42,929 nucleotides of DNA from the NCBI GenBank assembly GCA_964551885.1, contig CAZKEW010000002.1:1-42929 (forward strand). Reading direction: 5' to 3'. The stretch is from an uncultured Eubacteriales bacterium. GTDB taxonomy: Bacteria; Acidobacteriota; Aminicenantia; Aminicenantales; UBA8522. Below, piece after piece: positions 98-42,929 of this stretch (positions are counted from its first letter, which is position 1; every line of letters starts with the position of its first letter). Below the pieces are notes generated by a model. That model did not search any database and was not told where the DNA came from. It worked only from the letters and a program-made list of their open reading frames with translations. Made by a program: the position numbers and the translations under genes.

Positions 98-126
98 GGG
101 GACGGTTCTCAACGAGAACCGTCCCC
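98..126. terminator. REP-like hairpin GGGGACGGTTCTC-AAC-GAGAACCGTCCCC, probable bidirectional intrinsic terminator (copy 1 of 3)
   Basis: A perfect 13-bp inverted repeat starts 6 nt after the hppA stop. T-rich tracts follow it on both strands. The same stem recurs at 20460..20488 and 32112..32140. Confidence 0.6.
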
Positions 127-131
127 ATTTT

Positions 132-2609: not shown

Positions 2610-3905
<1,296 letters not shown>

Positions 3906-4149
3906 TTATTGGATTAAAAAATTTGAATTTGGAATTATAATGATATCACTTCTGTTCAGTATTCTCAATTTGTATGGACCCTTTCGGTTAGGCCAAGAGA
4001 GGAATTCATAAAGAATGTCCCAGAGCTATGGCCCAAAGTGTGATGAGTCGGGCGCGAGATGAGAATATTGAGCCTCCTAAATCGTTGAAATTAGGAGAAG
4101 CCATTCTTGCTGAGCTTGGCCTGGTAGTTTTAATGACCAAGAGAGAAGA

Positions 4150-13355: not shown

Positions 13356-13386
13356 GGGTCTTGTCACGGCGCGTCCCCGTCCGTCC
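13356..13386 (-). repeat. Solo terminal fragment of the MITE-like element
   Basis: GGGTCTTGTCACGGCGCGTCCCCGTCCGTCC matches the GGGTCCTGTCACGG(C/T)GCGTCCCCGTCCG terminus of the elements at 14532..14748 and 32356..32542. The similarity stops after ~31 nt. Confidence 0.6.
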
Positions 13387-14492: not shown

Positions 14493-14531
14493 ACTTCTTA
14501 CCTTTGCTCATTCCGAGCTGCGATTGAAACT

Positions 14532-14748
14532 AAAAAATGGGTGGCACGGCGCGTCCCCGTCCGCCCGCAGCGAATTTCCAGAATAACGGAGACACTCTCA
14601 AAGGCTTTAATTTTATGATATTAATCCCCCCTACCCCCCTTGAGCAATCAAGGGGGGCCATAGGAGCCTGTCGGTGTCTCCGCAATGGTCGGTGGGGGGG
14701 TCTTCAGCGAGGACGGACGGGGACGCGCCGTGACAGGACCCATTTTTT
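14532..14748 (+). mobile_element. MITE-like palindromic element, copy A (core 14539..14741, 203 bp)
   Basis: The terminal inverted repeats are GGGTGGCACGGCGCGTCCCCGTCCG and CGGACGGGGACGCGCCGTGACAGGACCC. The internal pairs are GGAGACAC/GTGTCTCC and a perfect 10-bp hairpin CCCCCCTTGA-GCAA-TCAAGGGGGG. A homologous copy sits in inverse orientation at 32356..32542. No ORF with coding signal is present. Confidence 0.65.
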
Positions 14749-14754
14749 AAAACC

Positions 14755-20459: not shown

Positions 20460-20488
20460 GGGGACGGTTCTCGGAGAGAACCGTCCCC
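20460..20488. repeat. REP-like hairpin GGGGACGGTTCTC-GGA-GAGAACCGTCCCC (copy 2 of 3)
   Basis: A perfect 13-bp stem identical to that at 98..126. It lies in the divergent region between the TonB-like gene and lpdA, where no gene ends. Confidence 0.7.
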
Positions 20489-20604
20489 TTTAAATATCAG
20501 GAAAAAGAATTTATAATGACTGCCGGTCAATAAGATGAAAGAAAGAATCGTTATGATGCCATCACTCATCGAGAGGGCAATGTCTTCTTAGTGGAGGAGG
20601 AGCC

Positions 20605-30793: not shown

Positions 30794-31263
30794 TAGACGC
30801 GTTGGGCTATTTTATCGAGATCATCAAAGGCGGTTTCATCACGGCCCGCCATTTCTGCGTCAATATGGTCTATCATATCCTCAAAGTTCTCGGCATCAAG
30901 ACGAAGAGAAAAGGAGCCGTGACCATCCAGTACCCCGAACAGAAGAAAGAAATCGCGCGGCGGCACCGGAGCCTTCACAGGCTTATGAAGAGAGAAGACG
31001 GCAAACCGCGCTGCGTCTCCTGCATGCTCTGTGTGACTGTTTGCCCGTCCGAATGCATTCATGTCGAGGCTTCCGAGGATCCCGACCCCGAAATTCAGAA
31101 GGTGCCCGCCACGTTCACCATCGACCTGAGCCGCTGCTGTTTCTGCGGTTTCTGTGTGGAAGCCTGTCCGGAAGACGCCATCCGCATGGACACCTCAAAG
31201 ATCGAGGTTGCCGAGTACGCGCGGCCGGACATGATTTATGATTTAACTAAGCTCCTGGGATGA
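30790..31263 (+). CDS. nuoI: NADH-quinone oxidoreductase subunit I (2x[4Fe-4S])
   Basis: 157 aa counted from the ATG that overlaps the nuoH stop (ATGA). The ferredoxin motifs are CVSCMLCVTVCP and CCFCGFCVEACP. Confidence 0.92.
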   Translation: MIDALGYFIEIIKGGFITARHFCVNMVYHILKVLGIKTKRKGAVTIQYPEQKKEIARRHRSLHRLMKREDGKPRCVSCMLCVTVCPSECIHVEASEDPDPEIQKVPATFTIDLSRCCFCGFCVEACPEDAIRMDTSKIEVAEYARPDMIYDLTKLLG

Positions 31264-32153
31264 TTATCGATAAATTCCGGCTGGGGGATTTTGATATCTA
31301 TGGCCTCACCGATGGGTATTTTTACCTCGACGGCGGGGCCATGTTCGGCGTCGTGCCCAAGACTCTCTGGGAAAAGAAGTGTCCGGCGGACGCAAAGAAC
31401 AGGATTAAGCTCGCCCTCAACTCCATCTTGATCAAGACTCCCCAGACGCTCGTTCTCGTGGAGACGGGCATCGGGACGAAACTCAACCAGAAGTTTCGAG
31501 GGATTTACTGCGTCGAGAAGGATCCTGGTCTTCTGTCTTCTCTTTCCCGCTTAGGTTTTTGCCCCAACGATATCGACTTCGTCATCAATACGCATCTTCA
31601 TTTCGACCATTGCGGAGGCAATACCTTCAGGAATGAAAACGGTGAGGTCGTCCCTACATTTCCCCGCGCCCGCTATATCATCCAGAAGGGCGAGTGGGAA
31701 TGGGCCAAGCAGCCCAACGAAAGAGAAAAATCCAGCTATCTTAGGGAGAATTTTTTGCCGTTAGAGGATTACGGCCTCGTCAACCTTGTTGATGGAGATA
31801 GCCAGGTCACAGAGGGAGTCGAGGCCGTCCTTTCGCCAGGCCATACCCTTTGCCACCAGAGCGTCAAAGTCTCTTCCCAAGGGAAGATGCTCTTCTATCT
31901 GGGAGACTTGGTGCCGACTTCAGCGCACATCAGCCTCTCTTACATCATGAGCTACGACCTCTTTCCGCTGGAGACTCTGGAAAGCAAGAAGAAATTCTAC
32001 GAACAGGCCATAGAGGAAGACTGGGTTTTGGCTTTTGTCCATGACCCTCATTACTATTTCGGAAAGATCGGAAAAAAGAACAACAAGTATGAATTCGTGC
32101 CCCTACTTTCAGGGGACGGTTCTCCGGGAGAGCCGTCCCCATTAAGCATTTGA
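31260..32153 (+). CDS. MBL-fold metallo-hydrolase (AiiA/lactonase-like HLHFDHCGG family)
   Basis: 297 aa with the HxHxDH motif THLHFDHCGGN, a downstream SPGHT, and GD/HD ligand contexts. Its ATG overlaps the nuoI stop (ATGA). The last ~14 codons are read through a REP-like hairpin. Confidence 0.85.
   Translation: MIIDKFRLGDFDIYGLTDGYFYLDGGAMFGVVPKTLWEKKCPADAKNRIKLALNSILIKTPQTLVLVETGIGTKLNQKFRGIYCVEKDPGLLSSLSRLGFCPNDIDFVINTHLHFDHCGGNTFRNENGEVVPTFPRARYIIQKGEWEWAKQPNEREKSSYLRENFLPLEDYGLVNLVDGDSQVTEGVEAVLSPGHTLCHQSVKVSSQGKMLFYLGDLVPTSAHISLSYIMSYDLFPLETLESKKKFYEQAIEEDWVLAFVHDPHYYFGKIGKKNNKYEFVPLLSGDGSPGEPSPLSI
32112..32140. repeat. REP-like hairpin GGGGACGGTTCTC-CGG-GAGAGCCGTCCCC (copy 3 of 3), inside the 3' end of the MBL gene
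   Basis: It has the same stem as 98..126 and 20460..20488 with one A>G change that gives a T.G pair. It is translated as ...GDGSPGEPSP.... Confidence 0.7.
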
Positions 32154-32355
32154 CGATCGGCGTATATGCCCGCGGCTTGCTGCGGGGAACCGATCGTCGG
32201 GAGATCCAAGGGGGTATGACCCCTTGGTCGTAGGGCGTGGGTCCATGCCCCGCCCGAGAAGGGGAGGCGGGGAGCGAAGCGACCGATGGAAGGGGGAAAG
32301 CGAAGCTGTTCCCCGGAAGCATCCTATTTTCCGTGATAGTCAGAGAAATCTTTTT

Positions 32356-32542
32356 GAGCACGGGTCCTGTCACGGTGCGTCCCCGTCCGACCTTTCCGGA
32401 GACACTAACCGACTTTGAGGCCCCCCTTGATTGCTCAAGGGGGGTAGGGGGAATTAATACCGTAAAATCAAAGTCTTTGATAGTGTCTCCGCGGTTTGTT
32501 CGCTGCGGGCGGGCGGGGACTATCGCCGTGCCACCCGTGCTC
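32356..32542 (-). mobile_element. MITE-like palindromic element, copy B (core 32362..32536, 175 bp), inverted relative to copy A
   Basis: The reverse complement of copy A aligns end to end. Shared blocks are GGGTCCTGTCACGG.GCGTCCCCGTCCG, GGAGACAC, CCCCCCTTGATTGCTCAAGGGGGGTAGGGG, GTGTCTCCG and TCGCTGCGGGCGG.CGGGGAC...GCCGTGCCACCC. Copy B lacks about 28 nt that copy A has. Confidence 0.65.
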
Positions 32543-32581
32543 ATCAAGGAATTTGGGATGCTACCCTGTTCTCCCTCCAAG

Positions 32582-32609
32582 TTGACTTTGCCCCAAAATA
32601 AAATATAAT
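32582..32609 (+). promoter_or_regulatory. Near-consensus sigma70 promoter TTGACT-16-TATAAT for the malic enzyme gene
   Basis: The -35 is at 32582..32587 and the -10 at 32604..32609. An AAGGAGG RBS at 32627..32633 precedes the ATG at 32642. Confidence 0.55.
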
Positions 32610-32641: not shown

Positions 32642-33988
32642 ATGAAAGTTACAGTGGAAGAGTTGTTGGCCAAGGCTGAACAACCCTCCAAGGATGCTAT
32701 GCGGCTTCATCCATTTTACCGCGGGAAAATCGAGGTCACCCCCAAGTGCCGGATCAGAGATTTCAATGATTTCGCCATCTGGTACACGCCCGGCGTGGCT
32801 GCGCCCTGCCGAGAAATCCAAAAAGACAGGGAAAAAGCTTATGAGATGACCAACAAATGGAATTTTGTCGCCGTGGTCTCTGACGGCTCAAGGGTTTTAG
32901 GCCTGGGGGATATCGGCCCTGAGGCCGGTCTTCCTGTCATGGAGGGAAAAGCCCTCCTCTACAAATATCTGGGCGGAGTGGACGCCTTCCCGATCTGCTT
33001 GAATACCAAGGATGCGGAGCAGATCATTCAGGCCGTCAAATGGATCCAGCCGACGTTTGGCGGGATCAATCTCGAGGATATCGCTCATCCCAAATGCTTT
33101 CATATCCTTGATACATTAAGAAAGGAATGCGAGATCCCGGTTTGGCATGATGACCAGCAGGGGACAGCCTGCGTGACCCTGGCCGGCCTTTACAACGCCG
33201 TCAAGATCGTCGACAAGAAGATGTCGGATATCAGGGTGGCTCTTGTCGGCGCCGGCGCGGCGAATATCGCCATTGCCCGGCTGCTCATCACGGCAGGTGT
33301 GACGGCGGGAAATATCGTTGCCGTTGATTCTCGAGGGATCCTGCACAAAGACAGGGGAGACCGGGAAACCCTGCAGACGAAATACAAGGAAAAATGGCAT
33401 CTGTGCCTGACCACCAACTCCGAAGGCCTTAAGGGTGACATCCCCGAGGCCATGAGAGGCGCTGATGTGCTCATCTCAGCTTCAAAGCCGGGACCGGGGG
33501 TTATCAAGAAAGAGTGGGTCGCGAGCATGGCCAAGGATTCTATCGTCTTCGCCGAGGCCAACCCTGTCCCAGAGATTTGGCCCTGGGAAGCCAAGGAGGC
33601 GGGAGCCCGGGTTGTCGCCACCGGCCGCTCCGATTTTGCCAATCAGGTCAACAACTCCCTGGGATTTCCCGGCATTTTCAGAGGGGCACTGGATATCAGG
33701 GCTATTTCCATCACCGATGAAATGTGCATCGAAGCTGCCAAAGAGCTGGCCAAGATCGCGGAGGATAAGGGCCTGAGCGAAGAATACATCATCCCCAACA
33801 TGGACCAGTGGGAAGTCTTCCCGAGAGAAGCGGTTGCCGTCGGGACAAAAGGCATCGAACAGGGCGTTGCCAGAAAGAAGATCCCGGCCGACGAGAGGTT
33901 CAAAATGGCCGAAGCGACTATCCGGAGAGCCAGGGATGAGGTTAAAATGATGATGAAAGAGAAGTTCATCATCGACCCCGACGAATAG
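32642..33988 (+). CDS. NAD(P)-dependent malic enzyme (short, no PTA-like domain)
   Basis: 448 aa with [38 protein letters not shown], the NAD(P) motif [12 protein letters not shown] and [15 protein letters not shown]. Confidence 0.93.
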
Positions 33989-42644: not shown

Positions 42645-42679
42645 TCCTCGGTAGCTCAATCGGCAGAGCGGGTGGCTGT
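42645..42679 (+). tRNA. tRNA-Asn(GUU) 5' exon (positions 1-35); 3' exon lies beyond the window
   Basis: TCCTCGG-TA-GCTC-AATCGGCA-GAGC-G-GGTGG-CT-GT gives an acceptor 5' strand, U8, a D-arm with G18G19, an anticodon-stem 5' strand, C32 U33 and G34 U35. The U1 and UCCUC start and the overall sequence parallel E. coli tRNA-Asn (UCCUCUGUAGUUCAGUCGGUAGAACGGCGGACUGUUAA...). The third anticodon base is not visible. Confidence 0.8.
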
Positions 42680-42929
42680 ATAAATGCAGCTTCCACGAGA
42701 AATCGTGGCTGAAAAATCGGGTGAATTCAGGGAAGCCTGCCTTCTGCATCAGGCGGAAAATGGTAACCCTGAGCCAAGCCCTGGCCGGATCAAAATGGTC
42801 AGGGAAGGTGCAGAGACTAGAGCTTATGCTCGTACCCTGAAGAAATTTCAGGGGAAGCGCCCGACACCCCACCTCCAGGTTTCTGGAGCGGGTGAAGAGA
42901 TAGTCCAAGCCCAGAAGAAATTTTGGGGC
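42680..42929 (+). ncRNA. Group I self-splicing intron (IC3-like), truncated by the window end
   Basis: P1 forms as exon GGCUGU / guide GCAGCU (42686..42691), with a U.G pair at the splice site. P2 is CCACGA-GAAA-TCGTGG (42693..42708). The core strings are TCAGGGAAGCC (42727..), CCCTGAGCCAAGCC (42767..42780), GAAGGTGCAGAGACTA (42804..42819) and GGTGAAGAGATAGTCCAAG (42891..42909). These closely match the Anabaena tRNA-Leu intron strings CUCAGGGAAACC, CCUGAGCCAAGCC, GGAAGGUGCAGAGACU and GGGUAAAGAGAGAGUCCAAU. Confidence 0.85.

Follow-up and report, generated by a model that had tools for sequence, protein, structure and literature searches.

A repeat with complementary flanks in Aminicenantes is very probably the central hairpin of a 251-nt MITE with ordinary 9-bp target-site duplications

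Background

The window, by which we mean the whole 42,929-nt stretch of DNA analysed here (contig CAZKEW010000002.1), contains two copies, A and B, of a repeat with conserved GGGT...ACCC ends. Immediately outside these ends the copies differ in sequence, and within each copy the two flanks are reverse complements of each other. The original prediction, made from the sequence alone, regarded this arrangement as the opposite of a direct target-site duplication (TSD), and proposed either insertion into a pre-existing palindrome or hairpin tip, or selection for an extended stem. The locus raises the question of whether the flanks are target DNA or a part of the element, and of where the mobile unit ends. 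Our analysis indicates that copy B very probably forms the middle of a non-autonomous DNA transposon (MITE) of 251 nt, as its central hairpin, and that the transposon has ordinary 9-bp target duplications. The family, although conventional for a MITE, is undescribed and has an unusually layered and modular hairpin architecture; in the literature, apart from mentions of CRISPR, we found nothing on palindromic repeats of Aminicenantes.

Results and discussion

Two copies of a strongly folding repeat

Copies A and B lie in opposite orientation (Table 1), and copy B was aligned (MAFFT) to the reverse complement of copy A from end to end with 83% column identity, as had been predicted. The alignment contains one gap of 24 nt, where copy B lacks the C-rich 'a-type' loop of the module O (see below), and three small gaps (1, 5 and 2 nt). 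The predicted single large indel exists, its size being 24 nt and not about 28 nt (the string originally quoted for it has 32 nt). Positions 32356-32542 are made up of the copy B core and six flank bases on each side (GAGCAC-core-GTGCTC). The mutual complementarity of the flanks holds for both copies and extends even further than described, reaching 7 bp in copy B (TGAGCAC/GTGCTCA) and 8 bp in copy A (TAAAAAAT/ATTTTTTA), whose flanks read AAAAAAT-core-ATTTTTT. Folding of both copies was far above that of shuffled sequences (z = -8.9 and -10.8). An apparent compensatory pair inside the element (GGCT/AGCC in A versus GACT/AGTC in B) is indeed paired when each copy is folded singly to its minimum energy, but it was not borne out at the family level, where the helix is 54% paired over eight members and is unpaired in the RNAalifold consensus. 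Neither copy matches any Rfam family at the gathering threshold, and at permissive thresholds the copy B region gave just sub-threshold hits of chance level, all of them outside the element.

Table 1. Positions of the parts of copies A and B and of adjoining or related repeats in the window
Feature	Positions	Strand	Remark
Solo O left arm, deletion remnant	13356-13386	+	orthologous site in L189 and L191 holds a complete O
Copy A outer stem (TAAAAAAT/ATTTTTTA)	14531-14538 / 14742-14749		
Copy A core, O and I modules without Y arms	14539-14741	-	203 nt; between convergent threonine-aldolase and CCG/Fer4 genes
Module X, a separate repeat hit by the MITE	32199-32581 (X at 32199-32314 and 32566-32581)	-	alignment to X in L098, L109 and L018
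Left copy of the 9-bp TSD (CTGTTCCCC)	32306-32314	.	8/9 match to 32566-32574
Left terminal inverted repeat Y-L (GGAAGCATCCTATTTTCCGTGAT), with the first MITE base	32315-32337	+	arm also bounds at least 12 copies elsewhere; boundary set by the empty allele
Left spacer, bulged, unpartnered on the right	32338-32354	+	DNA fold of 32315-32565; left flank compared with reverse-complemented right flank
Outer stem, left half TGAGCAC, containing the left flank GAGCAC	32355-32361	+	pairs with 32537-32543; covaries in 33 copies; not in the empty allele
Copy B core (GGGT...ACCC, O)	32362-32536	+	175 nt
O module, left arm (GGGTCCTGTCACGGTGCGTCCCCGTCCG)	32362-32389	+	
Inner module I: helix GGAGACAC/GTGTCTCC around hairpin CCCCCCTTGA-TTGC-TCAAGGGGGG and mirror-repeat G-tract	32397-32491	+	eight family members
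O module, right arm (GCTGCGGGCGGGCGGGGACTATCGCCGTGCCACCC)	32502-32536	+	
Outer stem, right half GTGCTC, the original right flank	32537-32542	+	not in the empty allele
Right terminal inverted repeat Y-R (ATCAAGGAATTTGGGATGCTACC), with the last MITE base	32543-32565	+	
Right copy of the 9-bp TSD (CTGTTCTCC)	32566-32574	.	single in the empty allele

Copies in other Aminicenantes genomes

Copies were retrieved, from one genome per species, with an exact 18-mer from the left arm of O. The scan gave many chance matches in GC-rich genomes and about 35 true copies (designated by L numbers, as are the other loci and contigs compared) in about 15 species-level genomes, which are Candidatus Aminicenantes MAGs and MAGs labelled Eubacteriales or Clostridiales. 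The nearest named relatives of the window proteins are from Aminicenantes and Acidobacteriota. Note that the apparent invariance of the O left arm is an ascertainment artefact of the exact retrieval; the O right arm and the flanks are unbiased by it.

The outer hairpin O spans GGGTCCTGTCACGGCGCGTCCCCGTCC... to ...GCGGGGACTGGCGCCGTGCCACCC. Its short forms (97-102 nt) have three alternative loops, and its long forms (170-220 nt) contain an inner module, which is "I" in copies A and B and "X" or "Z" elsewhere. By aligning each left flank to its reverse-complemented right counterpart and searching for recurring motifs, we found a further terminal inverted repeat of about 23 bp outside O, designated Y (GGAAGCATC..TTTCCGTGAT / ATCACGGAA..GATGCTWCC; left motif GGAAGCATCTCYRTTTCCGTGAT, right motif ATCACGGAAAYRGAGATGCTWCC). 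Y arms are present at both ends of copy B and of 11 other copies, separated from O by spacers of 6-25 nt, and both the spacers and the arms are homologous among copies at unrelated loci in different species. About 20 O copies, including copy A, have no recognisable standard Y arms, and no direct repeats were found adjacent to such copies; a few of them, for example L087, bear variant outer arms. The O copies of this kind may be decayed composites, or may have moved by another route. At L077 (3014-3108), a Y-bounded element has a core that consists of 33 nt only (GGGTGC...GCACCC). The sequence at L193 2005-2045 (GTTTCCGTCACGGAATTTGGG), considered as an 'empty Y palindrome', was rejected, the motif being the Y-R arm after an O remnant. 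All copies are intergenic, lying between tandem genes (13 co-oriented and 4 anti-oriented), convergent genes (9) or divergent genes (8).

An empty allele in the species of copy B

We compared contigs that encode an identical malic enzyme (gene at 32642-33988 in the window) and come from sequencing runs containing the species of copy B. Contig L200 spans the region from the metallo-beta-lactamase-fold gene to the malic-enzyme gene with a spacer of 202 nt, versus 488 nt in the window. On either side of the site its identity to the window is nearly 100%, and it lacks exactly 32315-32565 plus one 9-mer, beyond a 26-nt deletion (window 32280-32305) between two AGCGAAGC repeats inside X, by which strains vary. 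The empty site reads ...GCGAAG CTGTTCTCC CTCCAAG..., with a single CTGTTCTCC and with neither GAGCAC nor GTGCTC, and the junctions of L205-L207 are identical to it. L201 and L202 are filled alleles on contigs beginning inside the element, and L203 and L204 begin exactly at CTGTTCTCC, where the filled and the empty alleles branch. Filled and empty alleles were found together in single samples. Because of the 26-nt deletion beside the site, the empty allele is not the exact ancestor of the filled one; despite this, the boundaries of the element and the single target copy are unambiguous.

The absence of GAGCAC and GTGCTC from the empty allele means that the flanks of copy B are element and not target DNA, and the comparison shows that its insertion produced a normal direct target duplication. 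An empty palindrome, which the original prediction had proposed to look for, was not what this site turned out to be: the same-species target is non-palindromic, which contradicts insertion of copy B into a pre-existing palindrome or hairpin tip. A MITE family that is currently or was recently mobile, and is polymorphic within a species, is thereby documented in Aminicenantes.

The mobile unit of copy B is thus 32315-32565, 251 nt long, with its ends 47 nt (left) and 29 nt (right) further out than those of the core. It folds as one hairpin with a DNA free energy of -66.5 kcal/mol (z = -8.8), and it is of MITE size, being too short for a transposase gene (the short forms are about 180 nt). When the MITE and one TSD copy were deleted, module X was aligned unbroken to the X copies in L098, L109 and L018. 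The element stands upstream of the malic-enzyme promoter TTGACT-16-TATAAT (32582-32609).

Direct duplications at the ends of Y

At the real ends of the elements, further out than the complementary flanks, 10 of the 12 composite copies have 9-bp direct repeats (at least 7 of 9 positions matching) on the outer side of Y. The duplications are perfect in L004 (TTCCTATTT), L058 (TTATTCGAT) and L038 (CCCGGAACC), match at 8 of 9 positions in L028 (GCTGCYCGC), copy B of the window (CTGTTCYCC), L047 and L109, and at 7 of 9 in each of L098, L012 and L077; no 9-bp direct repeat was present in L007 and L024. The mean best match was 7.33 of 9, versus 3.68 (sd 0.31, maximum 4.92) in 5000 re-pairings, in which left and right flanks were taken from different copies. 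The view that the arrangement is the opposite of a direct target-site duplication was therefore mistaken, while the MITE-like nature of the repeat, which the original prediction had recognised, is supported by the Y terminal inverted repeats, the 9-bp TSDs and the dispersed copies.

The same ends bear on the proposal that the repeat is a REPIN-like REP doublet spread by a RAYT (Y1) transposase, or a palindrome-associated element of the IS200/IS605 type. Such an origin would agree with a long hairpin formed from two inverted arms, with the solo arm at 13356-13386, and with the multi-copy, intergenic distribution. Y1 transposases, however, are not known to yield target duplications or terminal inverted repeats, both of which are present here; the solo arm is accounted for by deletion (see below), and no gene flanked by arms was seen in the loci examined. 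We regard this origin as extremely improbable.

The flanks as a covarying stem

If the flanks are a part of the element, they should be related among copies, and this was the case. Over the 35 copies, the flanks showed Watson-Crick pairing of 0.89, 0.71, 0.89 and 0.63 at their positions 1-4, compared with 0.30, 0.51, 0.40 and 0.51 expected from column composition, and pairing fell to background by position 9. Over the first eight flank positions the mean number of pairs was 5.03, versus 2.92 (sd 0.21, maximum 3.74) in 5000 re-pairings, so that the proposed check of whether flanks are always mutually complementary gave pairing well above the re-paired control. In an alignment of 33 copies, between 23 and 29 of them are paired at any one of the six positions next to GGGT/ACCC, and position 1 alone shows four types of pairs in these copies (UA 13, CG 7, AU 6, GC 3).

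The flanks also share a consensus across the family (RRGAAY-core-RTTCYY). Those of copies A and B, which had been described as specific to each copy, are not unrelated sequences, each being one compensated pair away from the flanks of other copies: GAGCAC/GTGCTC of copy B corresponds to GAGAAC/GTTCTC in L014 and L087, and AAAAAAT/ATTTTTT of copy A to AAAGAAT/ATTCTTT in L033. Some variants are common to paralogous subfamilies, for example TTAATGGAY/ATCCATTAA in L004, L071 and L077. The consensus and the subfamily-specific variants across loci and species indicate that the flanks travel with the element. The flanks are a variable, covarying stem of 6-7 bp internal to the element and not target DNA, and the alternative of selection for an extended stem had come near the truth, the six outer bases being a covarying helix of the element. 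Subfamilies differ by compensated base pairs, so that complementarity is maintained; it could be kept either by propagation of hairpin-forming masters, with selection on the DNA or RNA hairpin, or by arm-to-arm template switching that would restore the pairing of the flank stem. The 'inverted flanks' arose because the most conserved block was mistaken for the element boundary, and an apparent exception to the DDE-type marking of insertion sites is thereby removed.

These results weigh on the idea that the GGGT...ACCC core is itself the mobile unit, entering palindrome centres or hairpin tips without duplication, in a manner comparable to insertion sequences that target REP loops, with the layers built up by serial insertion of hairpin into hairpin. 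The many module combinations in both nesting orders (O in Y, Z in Y, Z in O, O in Z, X in O), the position of module I at different points of the O loop, the perfect 5-8-bp complementary flanks without direct repeats of O copies lacking standard Y, and one Y-type insertion (L028) inside a GC-rich palindrome are what such a process would leave. On the other hand, the unit gained or lost at copy B is the 251-nt Y-bounded element in a non-palindromic target, the flanks share the RRGAAY consensus and subfamily variants across loci and species, an empty palindrome was found for none of the copies, and I replaces O loop sequence rather than splitting it. We therefore consider the core as the mobile unit distinctly unlikely, and prefer the Y-bounded MITE.

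We also considered whether the structure is an integron attC site, in which R''/R' core sites (RYYYAAC ... GTTRRRY) end an imperfect palindrome after a cassette gene. This was rejected, as the family has variable ends (among them GAGAAC/GTTCTC, GGAT/ATCC and GCGT/ACGC) that do not conform to GTTRRRY, and the contexts are not cassette arrays.

Inner modules and their nesting

Module I was compared in eight family members. Its helix GGAGACAC/GTGTCTCC is 96% paired and has two covarying pairs; its hairpin CCCCCCTTGA/TCAAGGGGGG is also 96% paired and has four. Module I sits at different points of the O loop, where it takes the place of loop sequence and does not split it. The purine arm of the hairpin and the next purine tract form covarying mirror repeats (window 32421-32460; L050, L049, L105, L099 and L033), seen in three independent variants only (GGGGAGG/GGAGGGG, GGAGGG/GGGTGG and AAGAGGGG/GGGGAGA). 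These mirror repeats fit a predicted intramolecular triplex of the purine-motif type (G*G-C, A*A-T, T*A-T) in module I.

Nesting of the modules goes both ways: L025 and L069 have O within Z arms, and L189 (2696-2895) and L191 have Z within O. Z is also found inside Y arms in L067 (6285-6640), and X inside O arms in L098 and L018. X is a GC-rich repeat of about 130 nt, of which further copies are at L098 2383-2512, in L018 and at L109 3621-3745. That O and Z are each found within the other, and X within O, is not explained by simple transposition of one unit with TIRs and TSDs. It is conceivable that the family is more than a decaying MITE, that its hairpin modules (Y, O, I, X and Z) have repeatedly been inserted or exchanged at each other's palindrome centres by a mechanism other than that of TIRs and TSDs, and that I may carry a conserved triplex, but we consider this unlikely. 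Candidate routes for such an exchange would be hairpin-tip-directed integration, or template switching that would also preserve stem complementarity.

Directly upstream of its promoter, the malic-enzyme gene has a hot spot for insertions. In the window, X adjoins the -35 box of the malic-enzyme promoter on its upstream side. In the closest other lineage for this region, L109 (contig Ga0209253_10000017; malic enzyme 93% identical), positions 3506-3916 hold a different Y-type element, with the ends GCAGCTTCGTTTCCGTGAT / ATCACGGAAACGGAGCTGC and X nested inside. In L115 and L116 (78% identity), the promoter lies in a spacer of only about 100 nt.

A hairpin of 29-34 nt with a perfect stem (GGGGACGGTTCTC-nnn-GAGAACCGTCCCC) also occurs three times in the window (98-131, 20460-20493 and 32112-32145), its third copy running into the final codons of the metallo-beta-lactamase-fold gene (31260-32153); the three may represent a family of terminators or of REP-like repeats. 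At 32152-32198, an inverted repeat GACGATCGG ... CCGATCGTC surrounds GCTTGCTGCGGGG, which resembles the start of the O right arm; here a further eroded element may lie between X and the end of the gene. At its extreme end (42670-42927, + strand), the window has a group I catalytic intron, matched by Rfam RF00028 with 86.3 bits over the whole length of the model.

Copy A and the solo arm as older insertions

In relatives, the locus that begins with the threonine-aldolase gene and ends with the CCG/Fer4 gene is syntenic. At the site of copy A, L189 and L191 (94% protein identity) have a degenerate 154-nt copy that retains the flanks AAAAAAT/ATTTTTT, and the spacer of L193 (91% identity) holds a different half-element. 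Upstream of the aldolase gene, L189 and L191 have a complete O with Z inside, the window has the left arm only, and L193 has the right part only. The orthologous copies and halves at both sites indicate old insertions that were vertically inherited and eroded by deletion. Copy A itself has neither recognisable Y arms nor an adjacent direct repeat, and no empty site for it was found among the orthologous loci (the 94% and 91% relatives and same-species contigs). It is best read as an older, vertically inherited relic of O and I.

Five same-species contigs (L195-L199) all stop about 101 nt past the aldolase stop codon. This point is inside copy A, and breaks of this kind are what a multi-copy repeat should cause. 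The repeats thus fragment short-read assemblies, which end inside copy A or exactly at the target duplication of the MITE. As they break assemblies and adjoin promoters and gene ends, they matter for MAG quality and possibly for gene regulation. Copy A, with an A-run before and a T-run after the hairpin between convergent genes, could terminate transcription both ways, a role as a bidirectional terminator being speculative; the terminator scanner, which admits loops of 3-8 nt only, reported nothing at copy A.

Such features lead to the question of whether the element serves in the first place as a structured RNA with a function of its own, or as a hairpin that regulates in cis (as a terminator, a stabiliser of mRNA or a site of processing). 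The covariation would then reflect selection on RNA structure, with mobility being secondary. Covarying pairs in three helices would be expected of it, as would the excess of co-oriented (13) over opposed (4) copies between tandem genes and the conservation at 94% protein identity of the strong hairpin of copy A with its A-run and T-run. Against it, copies occur in all contexts, 8 of them between divergent genes, and copy B stands upstream of a promoter; neither strand has the consistent folding advantage that an RNA should show, the opposite strand being ahead in 30 of 36 copies; the inverted repeats of transposons typically form such nearly perfect stems of 30-40 bp; no Rfam family matches; and the element is dispensable in the same species, as the empty allele demonstrates. 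A primary RNA or regulatory function is therefore very improbable. Note that the strand asymmetry of folding and G-U counts, tried as a discriminator of RNA or single-stranded DNA from double-stranded DNA, were abandoned, since there was no consistent preference for the top strand.

Proposed mobilisation of the Y-bounded element

Strains of one species differ in having or lacking the Y-bounded MITE as a single block. Its anatomy reads, from outside to inside, Y (about 23 bp), spacer, the 6-7-bp stem originally seen as flanks, the long imperfect O hairpin and the I module. As tentative leads, the Y ends (G[G/T]AAGCATC) together with 8-9-bp duplications recall the ends of the IS66 family (GTAAGC...), and the 23-bp repeat with 9-bp duplications recalls IS1. 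A transposase of the DDE type would act in trans by binding the Y ends and making 9-bp staggered cuts in the target, and would come from an insertion sequence outside the DNA examined. A search for a parent insertion sequence (Y-ended units of 0.6-3.5 kb) gave none in about 1.5 Mb of loci examined, and the Y repeat had 0 hits in viral contigs; with no autonomous Y-ended element found, the transposase is inferred only. Mobilisation in trans is suggested by analogy with known insertion sequences and MITEs, such as ISAba12 and MITEAba12 (PMC6382973; review PMC10969869). Whatever enzyme moves it, the layered covarying hairpin provides a natural data set for the question of whether stem complementarity is kept by selection or by template switching.

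Comparison with known systems

MITEAba12 of Acinetobacter is similar in being short and non-coding, with imperfect TIRs, many dispersed intergenic copies, strain-level presence or absence, and 9-bp target duplications, which only some of the copies have in perfect form (PMC6382973). It is, however, an AT-rich element of 113 bp whose 16-bp TIRs match the known ISAba12 (PMC6382973), whereas the Aminicenantes element is GC-rich, is 180-260 nt long and has no identified parent insertion sequence. The latter also differs in being paired over almost its full length in concentric conserved and variable layers, and in having exchangeable inner modules.

ERIC/IRU and Correia elements are likewise imperfect palindromes of about 100-200 nt that can be folded as one long hairpin, and are intergenic with possible effects on transcripts (review PMC10969869). 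Size variants from extra internal segments are a further common feature, whereas sequence similarity to the Aminicenantes element is absent, and Correia elements duplicate TA in contrast to the 9 bp of this family. Insertion variants of ERIC were reportedly described by Wilson and Sharp in 2006. To our knowledge, the nesting of Y, O, I, X and Z in both orders exceeds that known for ERIC/IRU and Correia. BIME/REP mosaics and REPINs are also mosaics of palindromic modules in intergenic regions, occurring as singlets and doublets, but REPs and REPINs are RAYT-dependent and lack the hallmarks of TIRs plus TSDs, while TSDs are demonstrated for the Aminicenantes element.

Template switching, described for RNA hairpins, is a mutational route to apparently compensatory changes in long stems (PMC8794818), and may account for the changes in the RRGAAY/RTTCYY helix. 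The subfamily-wide flank variants fit inheritance from master copies at least as well as template switching.
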